The position numbers and the translations under genes are program-made. The notes beneath the pieces are model-generated. The model made no database searches. It saw only the letters and a list, made by a program, of their open reading frames with translations, and was not told where the DNA came from. Below are positions 3,465 through 40,087 of a stretch of 64,000 nucleotides of DNA, in pieces. Position 1 is the first letter of the stretch. The number at the start of each line of letters is the position of its first letter. Source of the stretch: an uncultured Gammaproteobacteria bacterium. Lineage in GTDB: Bacteria; Patescibacteriota; Microgenomatia; Levybacterales; UBA12049. Location: the NCBI GenBank assembly GCA_964579845.1, contig CAZOHC010000001.1:27196-91195 (forward strand), read 5' to 3'.

Positions 3465-3479
3465 AGTCTTTCACGTGTC

Positions 3480-4676: not shown

Positions 4677-4766
4677 AAATTCTGTGCTTATTGTACCATA
4701 GAAGCATGAAAAGAGCGCGAATAGAGGAAGTATCACGCATCGGATACCAGGGTGCGAGAAGAAGTC

Positions 4767-6875
4767 TTATTCAACCCGACCGGTGAAGTTTGATTTTGCA
4801 ACCATTTGGTCGACAATATTCTTCGGAACGATGTCATAGTGAGACGGCTCCATGTAGAAGTGAGCACGGCCCTGTGACATTGAGCGAACCTGTGTTGCAT
4901 ACCCTGAGAGTTCAGCCAACGGAACCTGCGCTAAAATAATTGTTGAGTTTCCTCGCTCTTCTGTTCCGTTAATCTGCGCTCGCTTACTCGAAAGATCACC
5001 GATAATATCTCCCATGAATTCAGACGGTGTAGTAACTTCTACTTTCATAATTGGCTCAAGAAGCCCCATGCCAACCTTTTTTGAAGCTGCTTGAAGCGCT
5101 TGTGACGCCGCGATCTTAAAAGCAACTTCAGATGAATCAACTTCATGATACGATCCGTCGTAACACGTGACTTTTACGTCAATGACCGGATAGCCGAGCA
5201 AGACACCGTTTTCAAGCGTTTCTTTTACGCCTTTTTCGACTGCCTTCACGAACTCAGCAGGAATAGCGCCGCCTTTGATGGCATCAACGAATTCATTCCC
5301 CTCACCGCGAGGTTTCGGCTCAACCTTAAGCCAGCAGTGACCGAATTGACCGCGACCACCTGACTGACGGACGTATTTTCCTTCCGCTTCGGTCGAATTT
5401 TCAAACGTTTCTTTATATGCTACCTGCGGCGCACCGACATTTGCTTCAACATTAAATTCTCGCTTCATACGGTCAACCATAACCTCAAGCTGAAGCTCTC
5501 CGATACCTGAAATAACAGTCTGGTTGGTCTCCGGATTTGACTTCACACTGAATGTCGGATCTTCCTCAGTCAATCGCTTAATTGCCAGACCGAGTTTTTC
5601 CTGGTCTGATTTTGTTTTCGGTTCAATAGCCAGTGAGATAACCGGTTCCGGAAAGGTAATCTGCTCAAGAACAATCGGCTTTGTCTCATCACAAAGCGTG
5701 TCACCGGTCATGGTTTCTTTCAGCCCCACGATAGCAACAATCTCTCCTGCGTATGCTTCCTTAATTTCTTCTCGCTGATTTGCGTGCATAAGAAGCAGTC
5801 TTCCGATACGCTCTTTCACACCACGGTTCCCGTTATAGGCATAAGAGCCGGAGGTCAGTTTTCCGGAGTAAATTCTGAAGTATGTCAATTTTCCGACATG
5901 AGGATCATTCTGAATCTTAAATGCAAGTCCGGAGAATGCTTCCTCTGGAACGAGCTTTCTTACTTCCTCAGCTTCTGTTTTCGGATTAATCCCATCAACC
6001 TTGTCCAGGTCAACAGGAGATGGAAGGTAGTCGATGACAGCATCCAAGAGCGGCTGAACACCTTTATTTCGGAGTGAGGTTCCGGCATAGATCGGAACAA
6101 GTTTATAAGCGATAACAGCAGCTCTGAGTGCTTTTTTCAGCTCTTCAACAGTCGGTTCTTCCCCTGAAAGATATTTCTCAAGCAGTGCGTCATCTGTCTC
6201 AGCAATTTTTTCGATGAGTTTCCCGCGGAATTCTTCGACTTTCTCCTTCATATCTTCCGGGACTTCATCTTTTACTTCAAACTTCGCTCCGAGTTCATCA
6301 GAACCCCAGATATATGACTGCCGTGTCAAAAGATCAACATTTCCGACGTAGGTGTTTTCGCTTCCGATAGGGAGAACCATGATCGCAGGATTTGCTCCGA
6401 GGCGATCAACGATGCTTTTAACTGTCGCGAGAAAATCAGCTCCGAGTTTATCCATTTTGTTGACAAAACAGAGTCGAGGTACTTTATATTTATCAGCCTG
6501 TCTCCACACTGTTTCGGACTGAGATTGAACGCCTTCTTCAGCGTCCAGCACTGTAATACCGCCGTCAAGTACGCGCAATGAACGCTCTACTTCAGCCGTG
6601 AAATCAACGTGGCCTGGGGTGTCGATAATGTTGATGCGATTGTCCTTCCAGAAGGTCGTGGTGGCAGCTGACATGATCGTGATACCACGCTCTTTTTCCT
6701 GGTCCATCCAGTCCATCTGCGTATCACCTTCATCAATGTCACCGATTTTATAGGTACGACCGGTGTAAAAGAGGATTCGTTCCGTCGTTGTGGTTTTTCC
6801 CGCGTCAATGTGCGCGATAATCCCGATATTTCGGATTTTGTCCAACGGATAGGTGCGATTATTTGTGTCTGCCAT
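4767..6875 (-). CDS. fusA: translation elongation factor G
   Basis: G-domain AHIDAGKTTTTERILFYTG, DTPGHVDF, NKMD; the full five-domain EF-G length. Start set at MADTNNRTYPL (6875); the track ORF carries a spurious hydrophobic N-extension to 6959. Confidence 0.95.
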   Translation of the reverse strand: MADTNNRTYPLDKIRNIGIIAHIDAGKTTTTERILFYTGRTYKIGDIDEGDTQMDWMDQEKERGITIMSAATTTFWKDNRINIIDTPGHVDFTAEVERSLRVLDGGITVLDAEEGVQSQSETVWRQADKYKVPRLCFVNKMDKLGADFLATVKSIVDRLGANPAIMVLPIGSENTYVGNVDLLTRQSYIWGSDELGAKFEVKDEVPEDMKEKVEEFRGKLIEKIAETDDALLEKYLSGEEPTVEELKKALRAAVIAYKLVPIYAGTSLRNKGVQPLLDAVIDYLPSPVDLDKVDGINPKTEAEEVRKLVPEEAFSGLAFKIQNDPHVGKLTYFRIYSGKLTSGSYAYNGNRGVKERIGRLLLMHANQREEIKEAYAGEIVAIVGLKETMTGDTLCDETKPIVLEQITFPEPVISLAIEPKTKSDQEKLGLAIKRLTEEDPTFSVKSNPETNQTVISGIGELQLEVMVDRMKREFNVEANVGAPQVAYKETFENSTEAEGKYVRQSGGRGQFGHCWLKVEPKPRGEGNEFVDAIKGGAIPAEFVKAVEKGVKETLENGVLLGYPVIDVKVTCYDGSYHEVDSSEVAFKIAASQALQAASKKVGMGLLEPIMKVEVTTPSEFMGDIIGDLSSKRAQINGTEERGNSTIILAQVPLAELSGYATQVRSMSQGRAHFYMEPSHYDIVPKNIVDQMVAKSNFTGRVE

Positions 6876-6992
6876 AAGTAAGAAAATCAAAAGCCAAAAT
6901 GCAAAAATCAAAATTATTTTTTGACTTTCACCTTTTGACTTGAGCATAAAGTATACCATATTTTTTTTCTTCCTGCTATACCTGTTTTTGCT

Positions 6993-7021
6993 TTGACAAA
7001 CCTTTAAAAAGCACCTAGACT
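6993..7021 (+). promoter_or_regulatory. candidate sigma70 promoter for the pilN operon (TTGACA-17-TAGACT)
   Basis: TTGACA at 6993-6998, 17-nt spacer, TAGACT at 7016-7021, about 70 nt upstream of the pilN ATG in the fusA/pilN divergent intergenic region. Confidence 0.3.
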
Positions 7022-7091: not shown

Positions 7092-7646
7092 ATGGCAAAA
7101 GTAACCTCCATCAATTTAATTAGATCAGAGCAAACACACCACATTGACACCATTTTAAAATGGGCGCTGACAACAGGGAGGTTCCTGATTATTCTCACTG
7201 AAACAATAGCGCTTTCGGCATTTGTGTATCGTTTTAGCCTGGATCGTGAAATTATCGACTTAACGGATGAGATAAAAAATAATCAGGCAGTCGTCTCACT
7301 GTATACAGATGAACCTCGCTACCGAAACCTCCAGGAGCGGCTTACCTTTGTTGAGAGTATCAGACCGACACAGTCAGAAAAAACGATCCTCATGCATGAG
7401 GTTGTCAGCCTGTCAGACTGAAAAGTCACCTTTCAGCAGATAGCAATCGGATCAAGCGAAGTAAACCTTGCAATTACTACATCCTCAACAGGGGCACTCT
7501 CGTCATTTTTAGCCGGGATTAAGACCGTCCCCACGATTCAAGAAGTACGGGTGAACAATGTAGAAAACAGAGCGGGAAGTGGTGAAATCGTCGTCAACAT
7601 AACAGCAAGCCTGAAGACACAAGGAAAGGAACAGTCCGATGAATAA
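7092..7646 (+). CDS. pilN: PilN-like type IV pilus assembly protein interrupted by an in-frame TGA at 7419-7421; the frame continues 75 codons to TAA at 7644
   Basis: SD GAGGGGAG then ATG at 7092; N-terminal INLI(R) motif plus a single TM helix. After the TGA the same frame encodes VTFQQIAIGSSEVNLAITTSSTGALSSFLAGIKTVPTIQEVRVNNVENRAGSGEIVVNITASLKTQGKEQSDE and ends in an ATGA-type 8-nt overlap with the pilO start. Total length about 184 aa, as for PilN. Confidence 0.55.
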
Positions 7647-8274
7647 CGAACAAAGAACTTCACTGCATAATCTGCCGAAGAAGACATATTTGAACTACAT
7701 CAAGTCGTTTCCTGTTACGCAATCTGAGCAGGTCAGAAGTTATACAACGATAATTCTCACACTTTTGGCAATTATCGGATTCAGTGTATTTGCCATCAGC
7801 CCAACCATTAATACGATTCTCGAGCTCAGGAGGCAACTTGAAGATAACAGGTACGTAAATACCGCGCTCGAAGAAAAAATCACGGCTCTCGGATCACTTC
7901 AGGCTGAGTATACTGGTATGGGAAGCACGCTCGAGGTTATTGAGACAGCGCTCCCGACGAAACCGAATGTTCCGGACCTGTTTGCACGGCTGCAGACGCT
8001 TGCTACGAGGTATCAGGTAACGCTCATTACACTGGACTCTGAAGAAGTCGAACTCACCAAAACCGCACAGGGGAAAGAACCTTCATCGTTCGTTTTTTTA
8101 ATTACAGCTCAGGGTGCGTATGATAATATTTTTTCCTTTTCCGAAGCGTTAACCGATTTCAATCGCGTTGTCAGTATTGATGGAATTACGTTTACGAGAA
8201 AAGTAGGAGAAAACCAGACCGTCGAAGCGATCATCAGGGCACGAGCATACTTTCATCCGGAGGTAAAAGAATGA
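7639..8274 (+). CDS. pilO: PilO-like type IV pilus assembly protein
   Basis: 211 aa; N-terminal TM, coiled-coil (ILELRRQLEDNRYVNTALEEKITALGSLQAEY), C-terminal PilO-like fold; translationally coupled to the flanking genes (stop TGA overlapping the next ATG). Confidence 0.65.
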   Translation: MNNEQRTSLHNLPKKTYLNYIKSFPVTQSEQVRSYTTIILTLLAIIGFSVFAISPTINTILELRRQLEDNRYVNTALEEKITALGSLQAEYTGMGSTLEVIETALPTKPNVPDLFARLQTLATRYQVTLITLDSEEVELTKTAQGKEPSSFVFLITAQGAYDNIFSFSEALTDFNRVVSIDGITFTRKVGENQTVEAIIRARAYFHPEVKE

Positions 8275-8585
8275 AACTAAAAGGGGAAAATATTACCAAT
8301 TTACTACTTTCTGTGACTTTTGTGACGCTAGCGTATATTGGCTTTACGTTTTACCATACATCAGTCACCTCGACACTCGATGATGATCTTACCTTGCAGA
8401 TTCAGCCGATTTCGGCTAGCTTTAATAAAACGGCTATCGAACATCTTATCGGAAGAACTTCGGTACCACCAACCTATGAACTGGCAGGAGAAGCAGAAGT
8501 CACTGAAGAGGCAGCCTCAGCCGCTGGGTCACTGCAACCGGTAGAGGATACATCAGCTGAGGAAACAGAGGAAAGCGCGTTATGA
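8271..8585 (+). CDS. small membrane-anchored protein with an acidic tail (pilus accessory, PilP-like?)
   Basis: 104 aa; one N-terminal TM helix, Ser/Thr and acidic C-terminus; ATGA overlaps on both sides indicate it sits in the pilN-pilO operon. Confidence 0.45.
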   Translation: MKLKGENITNLLLSVTFVTLAYIGFTFYHTSVTSTLDDDLTLQIQPISASFNKTAIEHLIGRTSVPPTYELAGEAEVTEEAASAAGSLQPVEDTSAEETEESAL

Positions 8586-9973
8586 TAAAAAAACTATTAA
8601 GCATACGAATTCCTTCCGTCATCGGAATTCTTCTCCTGCTTATCGGAGTCGGCGTTACATCGTATCTTGTGGATCAGGGAATAATCTTTGAAGGAAGAGC
8701 AGCTCCTGAAAAAGAACCTGAGAATATCGCAATCACGAATGTCAGTCCGACGGGCTTTACCGTTCTCTATACGACCACGACAGCAGTACCGGGGACGATT
8801 TCATATGGAACGGAAAAAGAAGGAACAAATGTCGCGGTGGATGATCGGGATCGTGAAACAGGCAGATCAACTCCCTCAAAAATTCACCATATAACAGTAA
8901 GCAACCTGAACCCTTCAACGACGTACTATTTTTCTATTCTCTCAGGGGATGCAGTCTTTCTCAATGAAGACGAGCCGTATGAGGTGATGACAGCACCGAT
9001 GCTCCCCACACAGCCTGAAGAAACTCCGCCGATTACCGGATCAATTACGGTTCCTGAGGATGTCGAGGAGAAGCAGTCGATTGTCCTCATGACGTCTGAT
9101 GACTCGCAGATGGTCTCAGCGCTGGTCGATGAAGATGGATCCTATGTCATTCCGACCACAGGTATTCGCTCGGAAGACCTCTCAGCATACGCTGTCTTAC
9201 GTGACGACACCTTGTTTGATATGGTGGTATTGAATGCTTCCCGTACATCAACCGCTTCCGTACTGTACGAGAATACGAGCCCGATACCGCTCATTCTCTT
9301 GGGACAAGCATATGACTTCACCATCAGTAATGACCCACTCGATGACGGAACGATCGCATCAGAATCTGCAAATGTCAGCTTACCGGAAGTTACAACGAAC
9401 TCTTCAGACGAACCTTCCATTCAGATCGTTTCCCCTGAAGAAGAAGAAACATTTTCCGACCAACAGCCGGTTTTCCGCGGGAAGGCACTGCCCGGGAGTG
9501 AGATCGAGATACTCATCCATTCCGAGGGTCCTATCTCAGCAACTATTGAAGCAGACAGTGATGGGAGCTGGGAATTCCGACCTGAAACACCGTTAGCTCC
9601 CGGTAAGCATACGATTACGATTAAAACCCGTGACATTACCGGAACGCTTCGTGAATTCAGCAGGTCTTTTACGGTCTTCGCTCAAGGAAGTCAATTCGTC
9701 GAACCATCCGTCTCGCCGACCAGAACGCCCACGCCAACGCTGAGCCTAATGTCACCAACGCCGACCGCGAGTCCGACTGCTGTTCCGACACCGACTGAGT
9801 TCCCGACGCCGACACCGACCATAGTGTCCGAGGTGACTGCTCAACCATCCCCAACCAGGCCTCCGATGGAAGCTCCTGGAGCACGAGAAGTTGTTATCGG
9901 CGGTGTCATCGGTGTAACAACTATCCTGGCAGGGTTCCTGCTATTCTTCCTAACGAAAGGTTCGACGCTATGA
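8582..9973 (+). CDS. cell-surface protein with FN3/purple-acid-phosphatase-N-like and bacterial Ig-like domains, a Pro/Thr-rich stalk and a C-terminal TM anchor
   Basis: 463 aa; N-terminal TM; ITNVSPTGFTVLYTTTTAVPGTISYGTEKEG...STTYYFSI (FN3-like); PVFRGKALPGSEIEILIHSEGP...GKHTITIKTRD (Ig-like); PTRTPTPTLSLMSPTPTASPTAVPTPTEFPTPTPT linker; C-terminal hydrophobic helix. Confidence 0.7.
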   Translation: MIKKLLSIRIPSVIGILLLLIGVGVTSYLVDQGIIFEGRAAPEKEPENIAITNVSPTGFTVLYTTTTAVPGTISYGTEKEGTNVAVDDRDRETGRSTPSKIHHITVSNLNPSTTYYFSILSGDAVFLNEDEPYEVMTAPMLPTQPEETPPITGSITVPEDVEEKQSIVLMTSDDSQMVSALVDEDGSYVIPTTGIRSEDLSAYAVLRDDTLFDMVVLNASRTSTASVLYENTSPIPLILLGQAYDFTISNDPLDDGTIASESANVSLPEVTTNSSDEPSIQIVSPEEEETFSDQQPVFRGKALPGSEIEILIHSEGPISATIEADSDGSWEFRPETPLAPGKHTITIKTRDITGTLREFSRSFTVFAQGSQFVEPSVSPTRTPTPTLSLMSPTPTASPTAVPTPTEFPTPTPTIVSEVTAQPSPTRPPMEAPGAREVVIGGVIGVTTILAGFLLFFLTKGSTL

Positions 9974-11268
9974 GGATAGGTATTATCGGGGCAGGCTTCA
10001 CGGGACTGAGTGCCGGATACAATCTCGCAAAAAAAGGCCATGAAGTAACAATTATTGAGAAAGATAGCCACCCGGGAGGGCTAGCAATAGGATACAAGGA
10101 GCCTGCATGGGATTGGTCACTTGAGAAACACTATCATCATTGGTTCACAAATGATGACTTCGTTCTCCGCCTCGCAAAAGAAATAGGTCATGAGGTCATT
10201 ACCAAACGACCGAAAACGTCTGTATATCTGCGGGGCAAGTTGCATCAACTCGACTCTCCTGCACATGTCCTACGTTTTTCTGAACTCTCAATCATACAAA
10301 GGTTTCGGATGGCAACAGTTCTGGGACTGCTCAGGTACAACCCTTTTTGGAAACCACTTGAAAAAATAAAAGCAGAACCGTTCCTAAAAAAAACCATGGG
10401 AGAAAAAGCGTACACCCTGTTGTGGGAGCCACAATTTCAGAATAAGTTCGGCGATTTTGTCGGTGAGGTCTCACTTGCCTGGTTCTGGGCTCGTATTACT
10501 AAACGGACGCCGTCACTCGCATATCCGAAAAAAGGATTTCTCCCGTTTGCAGAACACCTCGTCAAATCCATCAGAGAAAAAAACGGAACAGTACTCTTTT
10601 CAACCGAGGTGACTACGCTGCGTGATGAGGAGAAAACAACGATTACGACAACAAACGAAAAAGGGGAGAAGCAAACACACATCTTTGATAAAGTCATCGT
10701 AACGCTCCCGTCATTCCTTTTCGTCAAAACAACGCCGCAACTGCCTGACAGCTATGTGCGCAGTCTGAATAAACTAAAAGGACTCGGTGCAACCAACCTT
10801 GTTCTGCGGCTTAAGAAACCGTTTTTTGCCGATAACACCTACTGGTTATGTGTTTGCGAGAAAAAAAGCCCTGTCATGGCAATTGTTGAACATACGAACT
10901 TTATGGAGAAAAAACACTATAACAACGAACACCTCCTCTATCTCGGCAACTACGTCGCACCTGATCATGCATATTTCTCTATGAATGAACACGAGATGCT
11001 ACAACACTTTGATCCCTTCCTGAAAAAAATAAACCCTGAATATCAAGACAACCTTATCGGGATGAAGCTCTTTAAAGCTCCCTTTGCCCAGCCGATTATT
11101 CCGGTAAACTATTCAAAAATCCTCCCATCAATGGTTACGCCTCTTCAAAACGTGATTCTCGCGAATATCGAACAGGTCTATCCCTGGGACCGGGGAACAA
11201 ACTACGCTGTCGAACTGGGTGAGATCGCCGCAGGGCTCGTTACACAAGCACATCATGAAGCTGAGTAA
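9970..11268 (+). CDS. NAD(P)/FAD-dependent oxidoreductase, UDP-galactopyranose-mutase/amine-oxidase-like Rossmann flavoprotein
   Basis: 432 aa; N-terminal GIIGAGFTGLSAGYNL...IIEKDSHPGG dinucleotide fold; HYHHWFTNDDFV resembles the Glf (UGM) motif GAHIFHTNDKYIW. Confidence 0.7.
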   Translation: MRIGIIGAGFTGLSAGYNLAKKGHEVTIIEKDSHPGGLAIGYKEPAWDWSLEKHYHHWFTNDDFVLRLAKEIGHEVITKRPKTSVYLRGKLHQLDSPAHVLRFSELSIIQRFRMATVLGLLRYNPFWKPLEKIKAEPFLKKTMGEKAYTLLWEPQFQNKFGDFVGEVSLAWFWARITKRTPSLAYPKKGFLPFAEHLVKSIREKNGTVLFSTEVTTLRDEEKTTITTTNEKGEKQTHIFDKVIVTLPSFLFVKTTPQLPDSYVRSLNKLKGLGATNLVLRLKKPFFADNTYWLCVCEKKSPVMAIVEHTNFMEKKHYNNEHLLYLGNYVAPDHAYFSMNEHEMLQHFDPFLKKINPEYQDNLIGMKLFKAPFAQPIIPVNYSKILPSMVTPLQNVILANIEQVYPWDRGTNYAVELGEIAAGLVTQAHHEAE

Positions 11269-12901
11269 TAAAACGTACGTCATCCTCATCATACTGCTCG
11301 TAATCGGTATTTTTCTTCGATTTTTCAATCTGGATTGGGGAGCGCCGTATTATTTTCACCCTGATGAGCGGAACATGGCATTTTCCGTTACACAACTTTC
11401 GTTCCCCGACCAGATGAATCCGAATTTTTTTGCGTACGGATCACTCCCTTTGTATGCTATCTTTTTTACCGGACTTCTCTCGAATTTTTTTACCGAATGC
11501 CGATTTGCACTCACCTCCTGTACAGTTTCGTTTGAACAAGCGATCCTCATAAGCAGATTCTTTTCAGCGTTATTTTCAGTCGGTCTTATCCCGCTTTTGT
11601 TTCTTACCGGTAAGAAGCTCTACGGGCAAATGCCGGGTCTCCTCGCTGCGACTCTGGCTACGATAAGTGTCGGTTTTATTCAGTTTGCTCATTTCGGAAC
11701 AACTGAGATGTGGTTAACATGCTTCAGTCTCCTCTTTTTTTATCTTTTACTGCATACAGAACGTCACATATCGCGTAAAATTCTGCTGCTCCTGGGGGTG
11801 ACGGCAGGAGTGCTCATCTCGACCAAGGTCTCAACCGCTGTACTTTTCATACTGCCATTTCCGGTTTTTTTATTTTCGTATAAAAAGCATCACAGCACGA
11901 CGCTTCATCAGATACGCAGAGCAGGACTCGTTTTTTTTCTATTCCTCTGGGTAGCAGGAGTGGTGTATCTGCTCACGAATCCTTTTGTAATCCTGGACAC
12001 GACAGCATTCCTAAACAGTATGCGGTACGAATCAACGCTCGCAACAGGTTCACTCCCGGTTTTTTATACACAGGAATTTTTCGATACCGTTCCTCTTTTG
12101 TATCAGTTCTCATCTATCTATCCGTTTCTTCTCAATCCTCTGGTGACGGTTTTTTTTCTTCCCGCTTTTTTATATCTGACAGTTTTCGCACTCAAACGAT
12201 TTGATAAACAGATCTTGCTTCTCCTGTGCTTTTTTCTCATACTCTTTTTCTCTCAGGCACTCCTTTTCGTGAAATGGACACGATATATGGTTCCAACCCT
12301 GCCGTTTATCTACCTCATCTTTTCAGGTGCGCTGTATAATCTGGCTGAGCAGCTTGACCGCAGTCAGCGCGTACTGATCCTTTACCGAGGCGGTCTATCA
12401 ATACTGCTCCTTGTATCAAGTTTCATTGCCGGATCCTATTTCATAACCGTTTACGGAAGAAGCGATACCAGAATTGAAGCGGCAGCCTGGGCAGAGAAGA
12501 GTATTCCTCACGACGCACAGATTTTGAGTGAAGTATACGACCTCGGGATTATTCCATTTAATGATCATTTTGCGAATGTGGCACTCTTTAACTTTTACGA
12601 GCTGGACGAAACAAGTACGGATACTACGCCTGAGCAATTATCAGCGTATATAGAAGATGCAGCGTATGTAATCTTACCCAGCCAACGCTTGTATAAAACC
12701 AGGCTTAAACAACAAGAGCGGTTTCCCCTCGGTCATGAGTTTTATACTGGCTTGAATGATGAGACTGCCTACCGTAAACTATATGAAACACACTGCGACA
12801 TGCTGTGTCAGATCGTTTACTTGGGCGACCCAGTCTTTTCGTATGAAGGAACAGCAACGGTTTTTGACCGACCGACGGTCATGATCTATCAGAAACTATG
12901 A
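11255..12901 (+). CDS. GT-C fold (PMT/ArnT family 39/83-like) membrane glycosyltransferase, paralog 1
   Basis: About 548 aa polytopic membrane protein; first extracytoplasmic loop NLDWGAPYYFHPDERNMAFSV...FFAYGSLPLY (Asp-Glu motif typical of GT-C transferases that use polyprenyl-P-sugar donors). Start at MKLSNKTY (11255) overlapping the upstream stop. Confidence 0.65.
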   Translation: MKLSNKTYVILIILLVIGIFLRFFNLDWGAPYYFHPDERNMAFSVTQLSFPDQMNPNFFAYGSLPLYAIFFTGLLSNFFTECRFALTSCTVSFEQAILISRFFSALFSVGLIPLLFLTGKKLYGQMPGLLAATLATISVGFIQFAHFGTTEMWLTCFSLLFFYLLLHTERHISRKILLLLGVTAGVLISTKVSTAVLFILPFPVFLFSYKKHHSTTLHQIRRAGLVFFLFLWVAGVVYLLTNPFVILDTTAFLNSMRYESTLATGSLPVFYTQEFFDTVPLLYQFSSIYPFLLNPLVTVFFLPAFLYLTVFALKRFDKQILLLLCFFLILFFSQALLFVKWTRYMVPTLPFIYLIFSGALYNLAEQLDRSQRVLILYRGGLSILLLVSSFIAGSYFITVYGRSDTRIEAAAWAEKSIPHDAQILSEVYDLGIIPFNDHFANVALFNFYELDETSTDTTPEQLSAYIEDAAYVILPSQRLYKTRLKQQERFPLGHEFYTGLNDETAYRKLYETHCDMLCQIVYLGDPVFSYEGTATVFDRPTVMIYQKL

Positions 12902-14610
12902 GGAACCTGCGATTTTTTATTCTCTTTTATGCCGTTTTTTTTCTGGCCGGCATCCTTCGCCTCTATAACGTGAACTGGGATAGCGGTTTCCACATGCATC
13001 CTGATGAACGTTCCATCACACTTTCTGTGATCTCCCTCGCGTTTCCTACTAGTCTGACGGAATTTTTCTCACCAGATAGTCCGTGGAATCCCAAGTTTTT
13101 TGCGTACGGGAGCCTCCCGTTTTACCTGTTATATGTGGCAGGAAACATCGGTGGACTCCTCCAGCCTGCATTCGCGACCTATGAAAGTATTAACATTATC
13201 GGACGGTATCTTTCAGCATTTTTTGACTTGGGAACTCTTGTTTTTGTTTTTCTCATCGGACGAAAAATTCTCCCGGTGAGATATGCGTTGCTGGGTATGT
13301 TTTTTTATGCCATCAGCGTGCTGCCGATTCAGCTATCTCATTTTTATGCAGTCGATACGATCCTGACTTTTTTTATCACAGGAACACTGTATTTCCTCAT
13401 CCGGTACTATGAATCGTATTCAACAAAAGATGCAGTTCTCATCGGCTTGTTTTTCGGTGCAGCGCTCGCGACAAAGATCAGCGCAATGGTTCTTCTGGTC
13501 TCAATCGGCACGGCACTAACCGTTGATTACCTCCTGCTTATCCTTAGACAGCCGAGAAAGCAGGCAAACTATCTTCCCCATCTCCCGAAGTTTTTGCGAC
13601 GGTTCCTGAAGCACACACTGATCATTCTCATCGTTGCATTCCTAACCTTTTTGCTTCTTGAACCGTATGCGCTCATCGATTTCCCGACCTTTATCCGCCA
13701 AACTATCGAGCAATCAAAAATGACTGCGAGTGCCTTTACCTTTCCTTATACTCTGCAGTACGTCGGGAAACTGCCGTATATATATGAAATCAGGAATCTC
13801 ATGCTATTCGGGCAGGGTATCTTGTTGGGGATTCTCTGCCTCGCGGGAATACTGTTCCTGACGTATCATGCTTTTCTGAAGCAAAAAAAGGATGCATGGG
13901 CGAAAGAATTCATACCGGTCATGTACTTCTGGATCTATTTTATTATCGTCGGCAATTTTGCAATCGGCTTCATGCGCTACATGCTGCCTCTCTATCCGCT
14001 CCTGGCAGTCACCGGTGCTTTCTTCCTCTACCAAGGTGTGAAATTCTTTCCGGTCCTTAAAAGTCGTTTCTTGCTGACAGTCGGAGGAGGCATGCTGTGT
14101 CTCCTTCTTTTGATTTGGCCGCTTAGTTTTATGCAGATTTACCAAACGGAGAATACCAGAATCAGAGCCAGTAACTGGATTCACACGAACATACCACCGG
14201 GGAAAGTTCTGGGTATTGAGCACTGGGATGACGCACTTCCCCTGACCGGGCAGATGCAGTATCCGCTCGTCACTCTCACGCTCTATGATGAAGATACACC
14301 GCAGAAATGGGACGTAATCAGACAACAACTACGTGAGATCGATTACCTTATCCTGGCTTCAAACCGACTGTATACTCCGCTTATGAAATTAACCGACTGC
14401 AAATCACTTCCTCCCGGAAGATGTTACACTGACACAGCTGAATACTACACCAGCCTTTTTAACGGCTCACTCGGTTTTGAGAAAGTTGCGGATATCTATG
14501 AGTATCCGACGGTTCCTCTGACAAACATTTCCATGCCTGACCAACACGCTGATGAATCCTTTACCGTCTATGACCACCCCCGTATCATGATTTTTAAGAA
14601 AATAGAGTAA
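12898..14610 (+). CDS. GT-C fold membrane glycosyltransferase, paralog 2
   Basis: 570 aa; NVNWDSGFHMHPDERSITLSV...FFAYGSLPFY, same motif arrangement as the upstream paralog; ATGA overlap with it. Confidence 0.65.
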   Translation: MRNLRFFILFYAVFFLAGILRLYNVNWDSGFHMHPDERSITLSVISLAFPTSLTEFFSPDSPWNPKFFAYGSLPFYLLYVAGNIGGLLQPAFATYESINIIGRYLSAFFDLGTLVFVFLIGRKILPVRYALLGMFFYAISVLPIQLSHFYAVDTILTFFITGTLYFLIRYYESYSTKDAVLIGLFFGAALATKISAMVLLVSIGTALTVDYLLLILRQPRKQANYLPHLPKFLRRFLKHTLIILIVAFLTFLLLEPYALIDFPTFIRQTIEQSKMTASAFTFPYTLQYVGKLPYIYEIRNLMLFGQGILLGILCLAGILFLTYHAFLKQKKDAWAKEFIPVMYFWIYFIIVGNFAIGFMRYMLPLYPLLAVTGAFFLYQGVKFFPVLKSRFLLTVGGGMLCLLLLIWPLSFMQIYQTENTRIRASNWIHTNIPPGKVLGIEHWDDALPLTGQMQYPLVTLTLYDEDTPQKWDVIRQQLREIDYLILASNRLYTPLMKLTDCKSLPPGRCYTDTAEYYTSLFNGSLGFEKVADIYEYPTVPLTNISMPDQHADESFTVYDHPRIMIFKKIE

Positions 14611-14657
14611 GCGAGCGCATTTGCTACAGTAGGATATCGCATAGTACAATAGTCCTA

Positions 14658-15695
14658 ATGACAAAACGGGTCTTTATCACAGGCGGAACCGGCTTTTTAG
14701 GAGTCCATCTGGCCAGGCGTTTTTTACGGGAAAAATGGGATGTCACCCTCTATGACATCGCACCGCTTGATGCCAAAGACCTTATCGGAAAAGTAGAGGT
14801 CATAAGAGGAGATATCCGTGACCTTGCTGCCGTTAAGAAGGCAATGAAAAAGCATGACTACGTCGTTCATGCAGCAGCAGCACTGCCGATACAGCGCACG
14901 AAACAAGCGATTTACAGTGTGAATATTGACGGGACCAATAACGTCCTCACGGCAGCACTTGAACAGCATGTCAAACGAGTAGTCTTCATTTCAACAACAG
15001 CCGTGTACGGTGTTCCGAAACATTTACCGGAAAAAGAAGACAGTCCGCTTGACCCGATCGGCTACTACGGTGAATCAAAAGTTAGAGGCGAAGAACTTTG
15101 TTTTGCGTTTGAGAAGCGAGGGCTCGAGTCCAATATCATCAGGCCGAAAACTTTTTTAGGACCTGAGCGTTTAGGCGTTTTCTCGCTCTGGTTTGAGGCG
15201 ATGTTTAACGGACATAGGATTTTCATTCTCGGTAACGGCAACAATAAATACCAACTTCTCGCAGTCGAGGATGTTGTTGACGCAGTCTTCAGAGCACTGA
15301 CTTCCCGAGTTCACGGAGAGATATTTAATATTGGCGCAGAAAAATTCCAAACCTGGAGAAAGGATCTTGAGGACATTATCAGAGAACATAACTCCGCTTC
15401 AAAAGTCACCGGCCTTCCCGTCTTGCCGTCACAGATCATCCTCCGAGTCCTCGAAACTTTGAAGCTCTCTCCACTTTCAGCATGGCACTACATGACAATG
15501 CCGGTCCCGTCGTACGTCTCAACCGAGAAAGCACAGAAGCTTCTCGGCTGGCAAGCGACACAGTCAAATAAAGAGATACTTTCGACCAGTTACCGCTGGT
15601 ATAAAGAAAATCGGAAGAAATTACTGAGTCGAAAAGGAAACACACACAGAGTAGGATGGAACTTCAAACTGCTTTCGTGGGTTGCACGACTGTAA
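14658..15695 (+). CDS. NAD-dependent epimerase/dehydratase (extended SDR)
   Basis: 345 aa; ITGGTGFLG Rossmann motif, catalytic YGESK, extended-SDR length; TACAAT -10 box 7 nt upstream of the ATG. Confidence 0.85.
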   Translation: MTKRVFITGGTGFLGVHLARRFLREKWDVTLYDIAPLDAKDLIGKVEVIRGDIRDLAAVKKAMKKHDYVVHAAAALPIQRTKQAIYSVNIDGTNNVLTAALEQHVKRVVFISTTAVYGVPKHLPEKEDSPLDPIGYYGESKVRGEELCFAFEKRGLESNIIRPKTFLGPERLGVFSLWFEAMFNGHRIFILGNGNNKYQLLAVEDVVDAVFRALTSRVHGEIFNIGAEKFQTWRKDLEDIIREHNSASKVTGLPVLPSQIILRVLETLKLSPLSAWHYMTMPVPSYVSTEKAQKLLGWQATQSNKEILSTSYRWYKENRKKLLSRKGNTHRVGWNFKLLSWVARL

Positions 15696-15740
15696 ACGTA
15701 CCGGATTTCTCACACCGCAGAAGTTGCGGTTAGTATTACT

Positions 15741-16307
15741 ATGAACATAGGTTTTGATTTTGATAAAGTATTTATAGATTACCCACCTGTTATTCCTGAT
15801 TATTTCTTTGATCGTTTTTATAAAAAAAAAGCAAACGGCCAACTCCTCTACAGAATTCCGTCAAAGCCTGAACAGACATTACGCCTACTCACCCACTTAC
15901 CTTATCTCAGACCGGTCATCAAAGAAAACCTGCGTTTTCTTAAAACTCTCCCGCAGGAAAAACATCATCTTTACCTTATCTCAAGCAGATTCGGTTTCCT
16001 CGAGGAGGTGACGGATCGAATTGTGAAAAAACATGGTTTTGATAAGATTTTTGATGAGCTCTTTTTCAACTTCCGAAATGAGCAACCGCATACATTTAAG
16101 AACAAGGTGATAAAAAAACTCAAACTCGACGTGTATATTGATGATGACCTTCCACTCGTGCGTTATGTCGCTAAAGATAACCGCCAAACACAGTTCTACT
16201 GGCTGAATAGTAAAATAACAGGAACTATCTCGCCTAATATTACCGCCATAACCAAGCTTTCAGATATTTCGCATACTACTCCGAAAAAAAACGCTACCGG
16301 AAAATAA
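15741..16307 (+). CDS. HAD-superfamily hydrolase-like protein
   Basis: 188 aa; motif I FDFDKV, distal YIDDD motif. Confidence 0.55.
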   Translation: MNIGFDFDKVFIDYPPVIPDYFFDRFYKKKANGQLLYRIPSKPEQTLRLLTHLPYLRPVIKENLRFLKTLPQEKHHLYLISSRFGFLEEVTDRIVKKHGFDKIFDELFFNFRNEQPHTFKNKVIKKLKLDVYIDDDLPLVRYVAKDNRQTQFYWLNSKITGTISPNITAITKLSDISHTTPKKNATGK

Positions 16308-16331
16308 TATTGTATACTGGAGATTAATTCT

Positions 16332-18632
16332 ATGGCTTTAAATGAGATACTGCTTGTCCTCAGATGGTGGGGCATGTTTTTTTTGCTATCTGTGACGGTT
16401 CTTCCGTTAACTGCTGTTTTATTCCGGTCATTTTTCGATAAAGGATACATTTTCTCAAAAGCGATCAGCTTAATACTGCTCTCATATATTACGTTGCTGT
16501 TTGGCACTTTGCAGGTGTTTCCCTTTACCTCGTACACGCTGATTTTCTATTTGTTGCTCATTACCGTTTTGAGTTACTTCGGACTGAGTTTCATACCATC
16601 CTTTGAAACAGGCAGGAAACACCTGCCCGCACTTATTTCAAAGTACTGGAAGATTATCTTCGTTGAGGAGGTGCTGTTCCTGGCAGGATTGTTCTTTTTA
16701 GCGTACATACGGGCTTTTTCTCCTGACATTCACGGACTCGAAAAGTATATGGACTACGGCTTTATGAACAGTATCCTGCGTTCTGATGTTTTCCCTCCGA
16801 AAGACATGTGGCTTACTCCGTTTTCAATAAACTACTATTACTTCGGTCACTTTACCGGGGCAGTACTGACCAAGCTTTCGCACATCGCCCCGAATCTTTC
16901 GTATAACCTTATTCTTGCCGGGGTATTCTCGCTGAGTTTTACCATGGCTTTTTCACTGGGAGCGAACCTCTTCCATCTGATTGGGCTGAAAGGGCGATTT
17001 CAGCAGTTGAAAACTACCGTGGCAGGGTTGTTAACAGCATTCCTCGTCACACTCGCAGGCAATCTCCATACGATGTATGCATTCTTCAGCCCGTATGAAA
17101 ATGAGAAGCCGGTCCCTGTCTGGGAATTATCATTTCTTCCTGCATCATTTCCTAACAGCTATTGGTACCCGAATGCGACCCGATTTATCTACAACACGAT
17201 TCATGAATTTCCGATCTATTCCTGGGTCGTCGCTGACTTACACGGGCATGTCTTCGATATCCCATTCGCCCTCACGACACTCGCTTTGCTTCTCTCTTTT
17301 CTCGTAACGTTCTCGCAGAAGAACACTCAAGGATCATCGACAATGCATAAGAAGTCGTCGCTTAGCTCCATCATTCGAAATCATCCTTTTCCGATGTGGT
17401 CGATACCGATCCTCGGATTTATGCTCTCGGTATTGTACATGACCAATGCATGGGACGGCTTGATATATTTACTACTGAGCGGTTTATTTATTCTCTACAT
17501 CCATCTGGTTCTTTTTCCCCAGAAGCAGAAAAGGTCATGGAGATTTCTTTTATCAGCTCCGTTCATGTTTCCGCTCGTACTCTCAGGTTCGATCTTATTC
17601 ATCAGCTTTTCTGTCTTCTCACTTCCGTTTTCGCTTCACTTTAAGCCTTTTGTCTCAGGAATCGGAGTCCTCTGCGCACCGGAATTTCTCGTTCAAATGA
17701 AGACACTCGGTCCATTTTTATTTGAGGCAGATCACTGTCAGCGTTCTCCTTGGTGGCAGCTTATGATGCTATACGGATTTTTTTACATCTACATCTTCTC
17801 TTTTCTCATCTTCCTGTTCAAAGTACGAAAAGTCAGAATTTCTGACACCTATGTTTTGCTCCTTATTATTCTGGGTACGCTCTTGATTCTTATTCCTGAG
17901 TTTATTTACGTGAAAGATATTTACCCTGCACACTACCGAGCGAATACGATGTTTAAGTTGGTATTTCAGTCATTTATCTTATTTTCAGTTGTCAGCAGTT
18001 ATACCATTGTCCGAATCACAAGCGCGATGCGAAGCCGCACGCTCACTTTTTTTGAGAAGTTGGCATCCGTCGGCTTCATTCTGCTCACGCTGCTACTTTT
18101 AACATTAGTCGGTATCTATCCGGTCCAAGCAATTAACTCGTATTATGGCGAATTAAAACACTACGCAGGAATCGACGGAACAAAGTATCTAGAAAAGCTC
18201 TACCCGTCTGACTATCAGGCTATCCGCTGGCTTAATGAGCATGTGACGGGACAGCCGGTCATCCTTGAAGCACAGGGAGATTCTTACACTGACTATGCGA
18301 GAGTTTCTGCCAATACCGGCTTACCGACTGTCCTCGGCTGGACAGTACATGAATGGCTTTGGCGAAATTCTTATGATGTCCCGAATCCACCTGCTGATCC
18401 GAACGTGATCTACGAAGTTCCGGCACCGAGAATTGTTGAAGTTCAGACATTGTATGAGACTGCTGATATTACCGAAACCAGGCGCTTACTTCAAAAGTAT
18501 ACGATTGAGTATGTTTTCCTCGGAGCACTGGAGCGACAGAAATACCCGAGTCTCAATGAAGAGAAGTGGAACCATCTCGGCGAACGTATATTCTCCCATG
18601 ACTCCACGATGATTTATCGAGTCACCAAGTAG
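16332..18632 (+). CDS. large polytopic membrane protein (DUF2298-like; possible GT-C-type glycosyltransferase)
   Basis: 766 aa with more than 12 predicted TM helices and a C-terminal soluble domain (GLPTVLGWTVHEWLWRNSYD) reminiscent of DUF2298/COG5427 proteins. Confidence 0.55.
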   Translation: MALNEILLVLRWWGMFFLLSVTVLPLTAVLFRSFFDKGYIFSKAISLILLSYITLLFGTLQVFPFTSYTLIFYLLLITVLSYFGLSFIPSFETGRKHLPALISKYWKIIFVEEVLFLAGLFFLAYIRAFSPDIHGLEKYMDYGFMNSILRSDVFPPKDMWLTPFSINYYYFGHFTGAVLTKLSHIAPNLSYNLILAGVFSLSFTMAFSLGANLFHLIGLKGRFQQLKTTVAGLLTAFLVTLAGNLHTMYAFFSPYENEKPVPVWELSFLPASFPNSYWYPNATRFIYNTIHEFPIYSWVVADLHGHVFDIPFALTTLALLLSFLVTFSQKNTQGSSTMHKKSSLSSIIRNHPFPMWSIPILGFMLSVLYMTNAWDGLIYLLLSGLFILYIHLVLFPQKQKRSWRFLLSAPFMFPLVLSGSILFISFSVFSLPFSLHFKPFVSGIGVLCAPEFLVQMKTLGPFLFEADHCQRSPWWQLMMLYGFFYIYIFSFLIFLFKVRKVRISDTYVLLLIILGTLLILIPEFIYVKDIYPAHYRANTMFKLVFQSFILFSVVSSYTIVRITSAMRSRTLTFFEKLASVGFILLTLLLLTLVGIYPVQAINSYYGELKHYAGIDGTKYLEKLYPSDYQAIRWLNEHVTGQPVILEAQGDSYTDYARVSANTGLPTVLGWTVHEWLWRNSYDVPNPPADPNVIYEVPAPRIVEVQTLYETADITETRRLLQKYTIEYVFLGALERQKYPSLNEEKWNHLGERIFSHDSTMIYRVTK

Positions 18633-18687
18633 ACACTTGGAAGCTGCACGACGTTATACACTGACTGAGACGTGTTATAATCCATGC

Positions 18688-19188
18688 ATGAATGCCTCTG
18701 ATAAAAAATCTCTCCAAAATCCGTTGCGGGTCACGACACTGACATTTCTCCTGCGGAACGATGAAATTCTCTTGGCGATGAAAAAACGAGGATTCGGAGA
18801 AGGGAAGTGGAACGGCATGGGAGGAAAGCCGATGATTGATGAGACCATTATCGATGCTGCGATCAGAGAGACTACGGAAGAAATCGGTGTGACACCGACG
18901 CAGTTAAAAAAAGTCGCAACCCTGAACTTTCATTTTCCCAAAAGGCCGGAATTTCAGGATTGGGATCAACAGGTTATTGTCTTCTTTGTCGACGAATGGG
19001 AAGGCGAACCGAAGGAAACGGAAGAAATGGCACCGAAGTGGTTTCCTATAGCAGCAATCCCGTTTTCTCAGATGTGGCCTGATGACATCCACTGGCTGCC
19101 TAAAGTCATCCAAGGTAACATTATCACCGGAGAGTTTCACTTTAATAAAGAGCTGCAGCTTGCATCTTTCTCGGTAACAGAAGAGTGA
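18688..19188 (+). CDS. NUDIX hydrolase (MutT-like)
   Basis: Nudix box GGKPMIDETIIDAAIRETTEEIGV; start at MNASDKK with TATAAT 6 nt upstream; stop TGA. Confidence 0.8.
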   Translation: MNASDKKSLQNPLRVTTLTFLLRNDEILLAMKKRGFGEGKWNGMGGKPMIDETIIDAAIRETTEEIGVTPTQLKKVATLNFHFPKRPEFQDWDQQVIVFFVDEWEGEPKETEEMAPKWFPIAAIPFSQMWPDDIHWLPKVIQGNIITGEFHFNKELQLASFSVTEE

Positions 19189-19199: not shown

Positions 19200-20345
19200 T
19201 TACTCATTTGACATCGGCGGTGTCGTCGGTGTTATCGTACAGTTGCCGATGGTTATCTCACATTGGACATACTCCTGAATCTCACTGAAATCTCCGTTTC
19301 CGGCCCGCGGGATAATAACCCACTGTCCTCTGAATTCGGCCCTCGGGAGCGGAGAGTCGAGAAGTCCTGCCCTATTTTCTGCTTCATTCCCTTCATCAAG
19401 CACGATACTTTTCATTTCAGCCTTTTCCATCTTACGGGCGAGCTTGATGAAGTCATCATACTCTTCTTGTTTTATGTCAGTATCAATGCTTCCTTCCAGA
19501 ACATTATAGAGGTTAACTAACTTAAGAGGGTTGAGAATCGTCCCCAGTGAAAACACTTTATTCCGCAGCGCACTGATCACTTTTTCTTGACGCTGTGATC
19601 TGGCAAAATCAGACCCCTCTATACCCGTTGCATGTCGTGAGCGGACAAAACGAAGCGCCGTTTCACCGTCCATGGACTGTTTGCCGGCATCAAAGTGAAG
19701 ATGCTCATAACGGCACGGGAATGCTTCCAGCTGCGATGAGGCTGTTGCCCGTTTTTCAAACTCTTCCCCTTCAAACCCGCAGGTGTCTGTCTCTTTCCCT
19801 GAGATCGGATACTCATAGTCATCAAACCCACGGGCGACGTCAACCTCTATGCCGCCTACCATATCAACTGCACGGACGAATCCGTTAAAATCTACTCGCA
19901 GAACATAGTCAACGGGCTGACCTAAAACCTTCTCTACAACAGCACGGGAAAGGGTGATTCCTCCTCCTTTTTGTTTGACCTCTGCATCAGAATACGCTCT
20001 GTTTATCTTTCCGTTTAAATCAGGGATCCAAAGATCCCGCGGGAGGGAGATGAGGGTGACCTTGTTTTGTTCCGGGTCAATGCTGGCATAAATTATTGTA
20101 TCAGTCAGTAACGGACCGTCATGTTTTCCGCCTCCGATGCCAAGCAACAAAATATTCACCCGTTCATCTTTTTTATCAACTTTTTCAAGCGCGATTTCTT
20201 GCTGGAAGAACAGCTCATAGAGGACAGGGATGTATGACCCGAAACGGTACAGCAACACGCCCATGATAATGAGAAATACCACGAAGAAAAAAAGTTTGAC
20301 TCTCTTTTTTCCGCGCTTTGATCCGTGAGTGGAAGTACTTTTCAT
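19200..20345 (-). CDS. LCP family (LytR-CpsA-Psr) cell-wall polymer transferase
   Basis: 381 aa; N-terminal TM then LCP core (ILLLGIGGG...TDTIIYASID...TLISLPRDLWIP). Confidence 0.85.
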   Translation of the reverse strand: MKSTSTHGSKRGKKRVKLFFFVVFLIIMGVLLYRFGSYIPVLYELFFQQEIALEKVDKKDERVNILLLGIGGGKHDGPLLTDTIIYASIDPEQNKVTLISLPRDLWIPDLNGKINRAYSDAEVKQKGGGITLSRAVVEKVLGQPVDYVLRVDFNGFVRAVDMVGGIEVDVARGFDDYEYPISGKETDTCGFEGEEFEKRATASSQLEAFPCRYEHLHFDAGKQSMDGETALRFVRSRHATGIEGSDFARSQRQEKVISALRNKVFSLGTILNPLKLVNLYNVLEGSIDTDIKQEEYDDFIKLARKMEKAEMKSIVLDEGNEAENRAGLLDSPLPRAEFRGQWVIIPRAGNGDFSEIQEYVQCEITIGNCTITPTTPPMSNE

Positions 20346-20348
20346 AAC

Positions 20349-21014
20349 TTATGCGTTTTTGACTAGGGAGAGAAAAGAATCTGCAGATAAACTCGCACCT
20401 CCGATAAGCGCACCGTCAATTGAGGATTGATTCGTAAAAGTCGCGATATTCTCAGGCTTGACACTTCCACCGTAGAGGACAACTTTTGCCTGCTTTTCCT
20501 GTTTTAAAAAGCGGGCAACTTCTTCCGCATTGTCCGGCGTATCAGGAGTTCCTGAACCGATTGCGAACACAGGCTCATAGGCAACGATCGCAACACCGTC
20601 CGGGATCATGGTTTCTTTCCCCTGAACACAGAAGATCACGTGCAATCCGGCATCATGTGCCCGAACGACCTTCTCTGCCAACATCTCATCTGTTTCATTG
20701 AAAAGTTTTCTTCTTTCAGAGTGACCGATAATCACATAGTCACACAGCTCACGTAATTGACCGGCTGTGACTTCACCCGTATAGGCTCCTTCTTCATAAG
20801 GAGAGCAATTCTGCGCACCTACACGGAGCGGGAGGGAGTTCCGGTCGATATAGTGCTTCATCTCTGACAGTGCAGAAAAAGGAGGACACACAACAGCTAT
20901 TTTCTCTTCTTCCTGTCCGGCAGGCCAGCTGCTGTTTACGGTTTCTTCAAGCCAGGCAAGAGACTGCTCAACAGTTTTATATGATTTCCAGTTTCCGATA
21001 ATATATTTCGCCAT
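20349..21014 (-). CDS. tpiA: triose-phosphate isomerase
   Basis: IIGNWKSYKT, IIGHSERRKLF, AYEPVFAIGSG; a short (221 aa) TIM. Confidence 0.85.
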   Translation of the reverse strand: MAKYIIGNWKSYKTVEQSLAWLEETVNSSWPAGQEEEKIAVVCPPFSALSEMKHYIDRNSLPLRVGAQNCSPYEEGAYTGEVTAGQLRELCDYVIIGHSERRKLFNETDEMLAEKVVRAHDAGLHVIFCVQGKETMIPDGVAIVAYEPVFAIGSGTPDTPDNAEEVARFLKQEKQAKVVLYGGSVKPENIATFTNQSSIDGALIGGASLSADSFLSLVKNA

Positions 21015-21116
21015 ATGCTACAATGAAGTTTACTTCCAGATTACTGCTCTTCACCACGTTGTCAGCTGAAACGATCTCAGCATGACATTTTTGAAGACGT
21101 AATGTCATTATAGTCT

Positions 21117-40010: not shown

Positions 40011-40087
40011 TGTACCAGGGGTGGGGCACGATCCCACGACCTCAGCGTTATGAATGCTGTGCTCTAACCAGCTGAGCTACCCTGGCT
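40011..40087 (-). tRNA. tRNA with CAU anticodon (Met, or Ile2/lysidine type); non-canonical details (G1.U72, A31.C39, T-loop ATCGTGC)
   Basis: Reverse complement GCCAGGGTAGCTCAGCTGGTTAGAGCACAGCATTCATAACGCTGAGGTCGTGGGATCGTGCCCCACCCCTGGTA folds as a cloverleaf: canonical D-arm, anticodon loop TTCATAA, 5-nt variable loop. Confidence 0.6.

Follow-up and report, generated by a model that had tools for sequence, protein, structure and literature searches.

Protein O-mannosylation by the PMT enzymes (GT39) of Actinobacteria and eukaryotes uses polyprenyl- or dolichyl-phosphate-mannose, and a structure of yeast Pmt1-Pmt2 is available (6p2r). PMT-type enzymes of Actinobacteria O-glycosylate linkers that are rich in proline and threonine (PT). 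According to their NCBIfam descriptions, members of two further families, TIGR03662 and TIGR03663, are often encoded side by side in Chloroflexi and Archaea. Agl23 of Haloarcula hispanica, a TIGR03663 member, is a GT-C-like protein associated with a lipid-linked-sugar flippase (PMC11182771). In Pseudomonas aeruginosa strains that belong to group IV the GT-C enzyme TfpW arabinosylates pilin, in a system that has homologs of DprE1, DprE2 and UbiA (bioRxiv 10.1101/2020.04.19.049825; PMC11841053). The gene block described here occupies positions 7092-18632 of a 64 kb window (the whole stretch of DNA that was analysed) from a Levybacteria genome (candidate phyla radiation (CPR), Microgenomates; G+C ~46%), and it places a PilN-like/PilO pair and a stalked surface protein in one row with a flavoprotein and GT-C glycosyltransferases.

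The block works most like the GT-C-dependent glycosylation of surface proteins or pilins, i.e. PMT-type O-mannosylation and TfpW arabinosylation, and it lies outside the DprE, UGM, PPOX and GT39 families. Its architecture is conserved and uncharacterized, being made up of known superfamilies and one abundant flavoprotein family without assigned function. Searches of the literature on DUF2298, PRK07233, TIGR03662/TIGR03663 and Levybacteria pili yielded one relevant paper, that on Agl23, and nothing on this locus. Uncultured CPR bacteria, including Levybacteria, are thought to depend on surface contacts, and the building and decoration of their envelope are almost unstudied.

The reading favoured here, with a confidence slightly short of even, is that the block is a co-transcribed, Levybacteria-wide envelope operon whose GT-C enzymes would glycosylate an acceptor outside the membrane, most plausibly the co-encoded Pro/Thr stalk; this is judged from the sequences. 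The 5′ half would provide four membrane-anchored envelope proteins (PilN-like, PilO-like, a small acidic transmembrane protein and the stalked surface protein with FN3/Ig domains), and the 3′ half a glycosylation module based on lipid-linked sugars (the flavoprotein, a variable GT-C set, an SDR with GT-C2, a HAD protein with GT-C1, and a DUF2298 protein). A polyprenyl-phosphate-linked sugar, made by a synthase encoded elsewhere, may be modified at the cytoplasmic face by the flavoprotein, and by SDR and HAD where these are present, and then be flipped; SDR and HAD would thus act as accessories to particular GT-C paralogs. The GT-C enzymes would use the flipped donor outside the membrane on an envelope acceptor, for which, by analogy, the Pro/Thr stalk is the best candidate. 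In this scheme we infer the donor, the acceptor, the flavoprotein chemistry and any role of PilN/PilO beyond co-expression. What the analysis shows is the set of genes with their folds and families, the tight coupling of the block and its conservation in 80 genomes, and the link of the flavoprotein family to membrane proteins of lipid handling in two phyla. The operon is among the most stably conserved envelope loci of the lineage.

The features of the block and its immediate flanks are:

6993-7021, + strand: promoter-like site TTGACA-17-TAGACT upstream of pilN (10/12 matches), 85-nt spacer after the divergent EF-G gene
7092-7646, + strand: PilN-like bitopic membrane protein with an in-frame TGA at 7419-7421 (PF05137 in orthologs)
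7639-8274, + strand: PilO-family bitopic membrane protein (PF04350)
8271-8585, + strand: small membrane protein, 104 aa, one transmembrane helix and an acidic C-terminal tail (no family match)
8582-9973, + strand: surface protein, 463 aa, with FN3-like and Big_13 domains, Pro/Thr stalk and C-terminal transmembrane segment (Pfam)
9970-11268, + strand: cytoplasmic FAD oxidoreductase, NF005560/PRK07233, amine-oxidase/PPOX/PDS fold (profile and predicted fold)
11255-12901, + strand: GT-C glycosyltransferase 1 (GT-C1), PMT_2 type with HPDER loop (PF13231)
12898-14610, + strand: GT-C glycosyltransferase 2 (GT-C2), PMT_2/PMT type, paralog of GT-C1 (PF13231, PF02366)
14658-15695, + strand: extended SDR, NDP-sugar epimerase/dehydratase-like (PF01370)
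15741-16307, + strand: HAD-superfamily phosphatase-like protein, 188 aa, distantly BT0820-like (HAD motifs)
16332-18632, + strand: DUF2298/TIGR03662 'YYY' protein, 766 aa, predicted GT-C fold, C-terminal extracytoplasmic domain
19200-20345, - strand: LytR-CpsA-Psr (LCP) glycopolymer ligase, convergent (PF03816, E 8e-33)

Gene order and its conservation in Levybacteria

The block consists of eleven open reading frames, all on the + strand, and every frame listed in the initial annotation is present. The genes from pilN to the stalk protein had been described as coupled by ATGA overlaps. This is accurate from 8271 on, where exact 4-nt ATGA start/stop overlaps are found at 8271-8274, 8582-8585 and 9970-9973, and again at 12898-12901, but the overlap between pilN and pilO is 8 nt (7639-7646). 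The flavoprotein and GT-C1 genes share 14 nt, provided that the ATG at 11255 is the start of GT-C1. The remaining junctions have gaps of 47, 45 and 24 nt, and no terminator-like site occurs within any gap of the block. Upstream of pilN, the promoter-like site is no more than a match to the consensus, and such sites are no commoner in the region than in shuffled sequence.

When one genome per species was scanned with the guidance of motifs, 158 matches were confirmed, and the best 80, all Levybacteria although some records carry wrong labels, were used for comparison. The order pilN-pilO-small transmembrane protein-stalk protein-flavoprotein is kept in essentially all of these 80 loci where the contig reaches far enough. 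The stalk-protein and flavoprotein genes adjoin in 81/81 related loci and have the exact 4-nt overlap in 39 of them. The two halves of the block are joined physically, and probably also transcriptionally, and not as a one-off; the block indeed runs unbroken from pilus-type into glycan genes, as had been proposed. Exact 4-nt overlaps are also found between pilN and pilO (24/76) and between the small membrane protein and the stalk protein (46/71). The upstream neighbour is EF-G in some loci, and MurJ together with ribosomal protein S20 in others. Because this neighbour changes while the order holds, the five-gene unit moves as a block.

The genes that follow are more varied. Nearly all loci have at least one polytopic protein of ~540 aa after the flavoprotein gene, and the GT-C content varies (PMT_2, GT87-like, DUF2298-like). 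DUF2298 closes the block in at least 50 loci and is terminal in nearly all loci whose contig extends to that point. Two groups can be recognized. In the first, to which the window belongs, GT-C1 and/or GT-C2 are downstream of the flavoprotein. The second has a ~545-aa protein with 9-11 transmembrane segments and a weak DUF2298-like match, often accompanied by GT87-like and PMT_2-like proteins. SDR co-occurs with GT-C2 and HAD with GT-C1; both are absent from the second group, in which the flavoprotein and the terminal DUF2298 persist. The flavoprotein is constant, but SDR and HAD are each lacking in about one half of related loci, and hence the conserved core is not an obligate pair of FAD enzyme and SDR epimerase.

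Where the contig extends that far, LCP is in most related loci the gene directly after DUF2298, and one locus (L061) has the flavoprotein and then LCP directly. The downstream order LCP-TIM-UvrD-FemAB is conserved too, and thus part of the conservation signal is plain lineage synteny. The main rival explanation, possible but rather unlikely, is that two unrelated modules are kept adjacent by synteny, PilN/PilO and the two accessory envelope proteins as parts of a type IV pilus-like machine with its other components elsewhere, and a set of wall-glycopolymer genes that serve the LCP ligase. The glycopolymer would be teichoic-acid-like or arabinogalactan-like and be attached to peptidoglycan by LCP, and the block, with its halves merely adjacent, would be an ordinary cell-wall glycopolymer locus. 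The position of LCP fits this explanation. So does the presence nearby of FemAB, MurB, MurJ and two class A penicillin-binding proteins (Pfam scans of open reading frames of at least ~120 aa across the 64 kb gave MurB, the LCP ligase, FemAB, the weak GT-C-like gene at 24655, PAP2 and the two class A penicillin-binding proteins as wall-related genes of the window), as well as the synteny shared by housekeeping genes and the lack of a pilus link for the flavoprotein family in Anaerolineae (see below). However, the 4-nt overlap of the stalk and flavoprotein genes in 39 of the 81 loci, and the adjacency of this pair despite changes in the upstream neighbour, speak against this rival. In addition, LCP is encoded on the opposite strand, and LCP substrates are pyrophosphate-linked polymers built in the cytoplasm, not products of GT-C enzymes on their own. 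The LCP ligase is a possible consumer of the block pathway.

In the window, a NUDIX hydrolase gene (18637-19188, same strand) is found directly after DUF2298. It has no counterpart in the 80 related loci and seems to have been inserted recently into the conserved gene order.

The flavoprotein and its relatives in Anaerolineae

The flavoprotein matches PF01593 (Amino_oxidase, E 2e-23) and is a full-length match to NF005560/PRK07233 (residues 1-428 of 432; 385.8 bits, cutoff 252). Orthologs are 62-77% identical. The top Foldseek matches to its predicted structure (pLDDT 87) are PPOX (2ivd/2ive), PDS (5mog, TMq 0.81) and MAO, all at ~15% identity. A Glf/UGM-like enzyme had been proposed at first, and this has to be given up: the protein has no GLF domain (PF03275), its best family match is NF005560, and UGM is not among the Foldseek top 50. 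UGM chains match the N-terminal Rossmann segment only (residues 2-94, E ~6e-5). Orthology to PDS or PPOX had been named as the finding that would speak against the pathway in the initial annotation. The fold class is the same, but with an identity of only ~15% the flavoprotein is not an ortholog of either. The profile scores likewise exclude HpnE (62.9 vs. a cutoff of 283 bits), PPOX (37.6 vs. 97.9 bits) and the CrtI family (36.6 vs. 238 bits).

The family is large. An exhaustive search of cluster representatives with the NF005560-type flavoprotein produced 673 clusters at 50% identity with E < 1e-30. Members include fusions to PF03706 (LPG_synthase_TM, flippase-like; P0262) and to a methyltransferase. 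For a view outside Levybacteria, 80 metagenomic loci were taken from a branch ~40% identical to the window protein, which database names assign to Anaerolineae/Chloroflexota. A PF03706 gene is found no more than three genes upstream and on the same strand in 42 of these 80 loci, and is immediately adjacent in 29; a UDP-glucose/GDP-mannose dehydrogenase gene is downstream in 13/80. None of the 80 loci has PilN or a GT-C enzyme of the window type beside the flavoprotein. Two long contigs have a translationally coupled PF03706-flavoprotein-dehydrogenase module (L164, 6919-10646; L165, 1040-4770).

The uncharacterized Anaerolineae module resembles the Levybacteria block in that a flavoprotein of the same family (~40% identity) is translationally coupled to a polytopic membrane protein for lipids or lipid-linked groups. 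It differs in that the partner is a flippase-like PF03706 protein and not a GT-C enzyme, and in having no pilus-type or stalk proteins. What the members of the flavoprotein family have in common is thus not pili but a polytopic membrane partner acting on lipids or lipid-linked groups. In Anaerolineae the flavoprotein has a PF03706 protein on one side and a UDP-sugar dehydrogenase on the other, an arrangement that favours a lipid-linked substrate and speaks against any intrinsic connection with pili. The pilus association originally made for this enzyme does not extend beyond Levybacteria, as relatives outside this lineage travel with the PF03706 protein and the dehydrogenase instead of pilus or GT-C genes. 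Of interest here is that an abundant uncharacterized flavoprotein family is tied to lipid-linked membrane chemistry in two phyla.

Another explanation, which is improbable, is that the flavoprotein acts on a lipid as such: it may alter the polyprenyl carrier by saturation or desaturation, which would supply PMT-type GT-C enzymes with a dolichol-like carrier, or it may modify some other membrane lipid, and the GT-C genes would be its neighbours only through use of that carrier. The closest folds, PDS and PPOX, do act on hydrophobic substrates, HpnE and CrtI are distant relatives of the family, and it is coupled to, and once fused with, PF03706, the membrane domain of a lipid-modifying and -flipping enzyme. 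On the other hand, the identity to any characterized desaturase is ~15%, the recurrent UDP-sugar dehydrogenase of Anaerolineae points to sugar chemistry, and the block has no isoprenoid-synthesis gene. The same fold similarity to enzymes with hydrophobic or membrane substrates (PPOX, PDS) is also in keeping with the favoured reading, where the flavoprotein would modify a lipid-linked sugar.

GT-C enzymes, DUF2298 and accessory proteins

GT-C1 and GT-C2 both exceed the PF13231 (PMT_2) cutoff of 26.1 bits, with 36.9 and 45.5 bits, respectively, and only GT-C2 reaches PF02366 (25.6 bits, cutoff 22.7). They are full-length paralogs with 26% identity (E 4e-42). The HPDER loop is the first external loop, and D36-E37-R38 are invariant in 39 homologs. 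The initial annotation's description of two paralogous PMT-like GT-C enzymes with this loop is thus correct, as are its identifications of the extended SDR, the HAD protein and the DUF2298-like protein of 766 aa, whose evidence follows.

The two enzymes do not belong to GT39 protein O-mannosyltransferases proper. Pfam finds no MIR domains in either of them, and searches of PDB with sequence profiles built from the GT-C and DUF2298 alignments gave nothing significant (PMT, E > 0.4); structure comparison alone was productive. The similarity to PMT is therefore at the clan level. The locus differs from PMT pathways also in having no Ppm1/GT2 donor synthase nearby and in its extra flavoprotein, which has no counterpart there. 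Membership in TIGR03663 (Agl23) was rejected as well, with 20.5 bits for GT-C2 against a cutoff of 126 and no match for GT-C1.

The last protein of the block is a clear member of its family, with 321.5 bits to PF10060 and 503.9 bits to TIGR03662 (cutoff 300), far above the cutoffs of both models. Its YYYxG motif reads N167-Y-Y-Y-F-G172, where N167, Y168, Y169, F171 and G172 are invariant and Y170 nearly so. The predicted model (pTM 0.84, pLDDT 74.5) leaves several conserved loops poorly modelled. It is structurally similar to solved GT-C enzymes, and Foldseek agrees. The modelling thus assigns to DUF2298 a GT-C fold and a likely role as a GT-C glycosyltransferase. Together with GT-C1 and GT-C2, this makes three GT-C enzymes in the block. 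With a TIGR03662 protein next to PMT-like GT-C enzymes, the window recalls the TIGR03662/TIGR03663 neighbours of Chloroflexi and Archaea, but its GT-C partners are of another family, and the link to PilN/PilO, the stalk protein and NF005560 is outside that description.

A third GT-C-like gene had been noted at 24655. An open reading frame is there, but it has only sub-threshold matches (DUF2079, 25 bits; PMT_2, 21 bits), and its position is not conserved in relatives.

The SDR is a strong PF01370 match (E 1.9e-45). The nearest named model is HpnA (TIGR03466; 117 bits, cutoff 368), so that no equivalog can be named, and the nearest solved structures are generic epimerases and dehydratases. Family matches of the HAD protein are weak (NF046079, E 0.0028; PDB 2obb, E 0.76), yet all four HAD motifs are present, with D6, D8, S81, K120 and D134-136 (motifs I-IV) invariant in 28 orthologs.

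The combination of enzymes was compared at the outset with DprE1/DprE2. According to this explanation the flavoprotein and SDR epimerize a polyprenyl-phospho-pentose, HAD removes a 5-phosphate, like the phosphatase in the pathway to decaprenyl-phospho-arabinose, and the GT-C enzymes transfer the furanose to pilin or to a surface protein. The enzyme classes do fit (a flavin oxidase, an NAD(P) reductase, a phosphatase and GT-C transferases), and arabinosylation of pilin by a GT-C enzyme has a precedent in TfpW (bioRxiv 10.1101/2020.04.19.049825). The TfpW system and the block have in common pilus-related genes beside a GT-C enzyme that uses a lipid-phosphate-linked sugar, and an accessory flavoprotein and SDR. 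However, the flavoprotein is of the amine-oxidase/PPOX class, whereas DprE1 is of the VAO class; within the window, FAD_binding_4 is found in MurB only. The SDR is of the extended NDP-sugar type, not the classical type of DprE2, and is optional in relatives: SDR and HAD do not occur in about half of the flavoprotein loci, and SDR tracks GT-C2 and HAD tracks GT-C1, not each other and not the flavoprotein. The 64 kb window has only PilN/PilO, with no pilin gene and no UbiA-type phosphoribosyltransferase. The DprE1/DprE2 comparison does not hold at the level of families, epimerization of this type is weakly supported, and the pathway as a whole is very unlikely.

The stalked surface protein and the PilN/PilO pair

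The 463-aa protein was well described from the start as an Ig/FN3 surface protein with a PT stalk. It has an N-terminal hydrophobic signal or anchor, matches to Big_13 (E 1.3e-11) and to the FN3-like Pur_ac_phosph_N (E 1.7e-9), a Pro/Thr stalk at approximately residues 373-425, and a C-terminal transmembrane segment with a basic tail. Proline plus threonine (P+T), measured in windows of 40 residues, reaches 60% over 40 aa of the stalk. Stalk and C-terminal anchor are kept across 77 orthologs. In 36 of the 77, a [LIVM]Px[TS]G motif (LPPTG in 19) is found just before the transmembrane segment, with a basic tail after it (e.g. in L009, L019 and L048), and 5/38 orthologs match PF00746 (Gram_pos_anchor) at E ≤ 0.1. 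The C-terminus in many relatives is a predicted sortase-type sorting signal. The window copy has a degenerate 'MEAPGAR' at the position of the motif, though the transmembrane segment and a lysine are present.

A Pro/Thr stalk of this kind is a credible O-glycosylation acceptor. If it is the acceptor, the block would represent a compact protein O-glycosylation system with a new accessory enzyme. A number of findings weigh against this, and against the operon reading in general. The 80 Levybacteria loci are of one lineage, in which housekeeping neighbours (EF-G, TIM, UvrD, FemAB) are syntenic, and this makes adjacency weaker evidence. The partners of the flavoprotein differ between phyla, and DUF2298 is within 10 kb of it in only 3/80 Anaerolineae-type loci. 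Pfam scans of the open reading frames of at least ~120 aa in the 64 kb window show no polyprenyl-phosphate sugar synthase (GT2 or UbiA type), no flippase and no sortase gene, and thus the pathway is not self-contained. Moreover, the stalk is equally present with quite different GT-C sets, the median P+T being 0.60 and 0.55 in the two groups, and also in L061, where no GT-C genes adjoin; no acceptor-enzyme correlation could be shown. The fullest form of the proposal is to be regarded as unlikely, i.e. that NF005560 is a new lipid-linked glycan enzyme which, at the cytoplasmic face of the membrane, oxidizes or reduces a polyprenyl-phosphate-linked sugar or its carrier, and that it feeds three dedicated GT-C enzymes which would O-glycosylate the Pro/Thr stalk of a sortase-anchored protein, with a PilN/PilO pair outside any classical pilus operon assisting the assembly or positioning of that protein. 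If this form is true, the block would be a new system of envelope decoration in CPR bacteria.

The PilO protein matches PF04350 (E 2.1e-10; 41.3 bits, cutoff 22) and has orthologs in 77 related loci. The PilN-like protein of the window has no Pfam match, even when read through the TGA at 7419-7421, beyond which the frame stays open up to a TAA overlapping the start of pilO. Its orthologs do better, as 35/43 match PF05137 (best E 2.6e-8), and all 77 of 77 are uninterrupted, with lengths of 176-223 aa. Several neighbouring genes end in TGA, which this genome uses as an ordinary stop. With intact orthologs and a normal TGA, recoding can be rejected, and the pilN TGA is either an assembly error or a nonsense mutation private to this genome. 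Among orthologs of the PilN-like protein, S-I-N-L at the N-terminus is invariant or nearly so, and it resembles the PilM-binding INLLP motif. The small 104-aa membrane protein, with a 4-nt overlap on either side, has orthologs in 71 related loci.

The block was initially called a pilus-assembly locus. PilO bears this out in part, but the block has only the PilN-like/PilO pair, with pilN interrupted, and is not a full pilus locus. PilM, a PilB/T ATPase, a PilC platform protein, a PilD peptidase and a pilin are all absent from the 64 kb window by Pfam scans of its open reading frames of at least ~120 aa, and none of these genes was seen upstream in relatives. The pair resembles the PilMNO(PQ) alignment subcomplex in its PilO match and the PilN matches of orthologs, in bitopic topology, in adjoining and translationally coupled genes, and in the conserved N-terminal I-N-L. 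It differs in that PilM is not beside PilN and other pilus genes are lacking in the window, and in that a sortase-type surface protein and glycosylation genes come next, not PilP/PilQ or pilins.

One related locus (L001) has matches to T4SS_pilin and PrgI, i.e. to a conjugation-type pilus, at 20364-21299 after the block, in place of LCP.

Several other features of the window should be pointed out. The EF-G gene upstream of the block (4767-6959, - strand) has a longest open reading frame that opens with a hydrophobic extension of ~28 residues, and translation probably begins at the internal Met that immediately precedes 'ADTNNRTYPLDK'. Beyond it, at 1659-4736 (- strand), is an ATP-citrate-lyase-like pair, one protein with Citrate_bind/ATP-grasp and the other with CoA-ligase and a citrate synthase C-terminal domain. 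Such a pair is unusual for a reduced CPR genome, and upstream counterparts are found in 1/80 related loci (L045). The two class A penicillin-binding proteins (transglycosylase plus transpeptidase) are in tandem at 55943-60436. The region 40012-45882 contains two tRNA-Met genes on opposite strands, a tyrosine integrase (41242-42102), tRNA-Ile(TAT) and a VirD4/TrwB-like coupling protein (43516-45882), and may be an integrated conjugative element.

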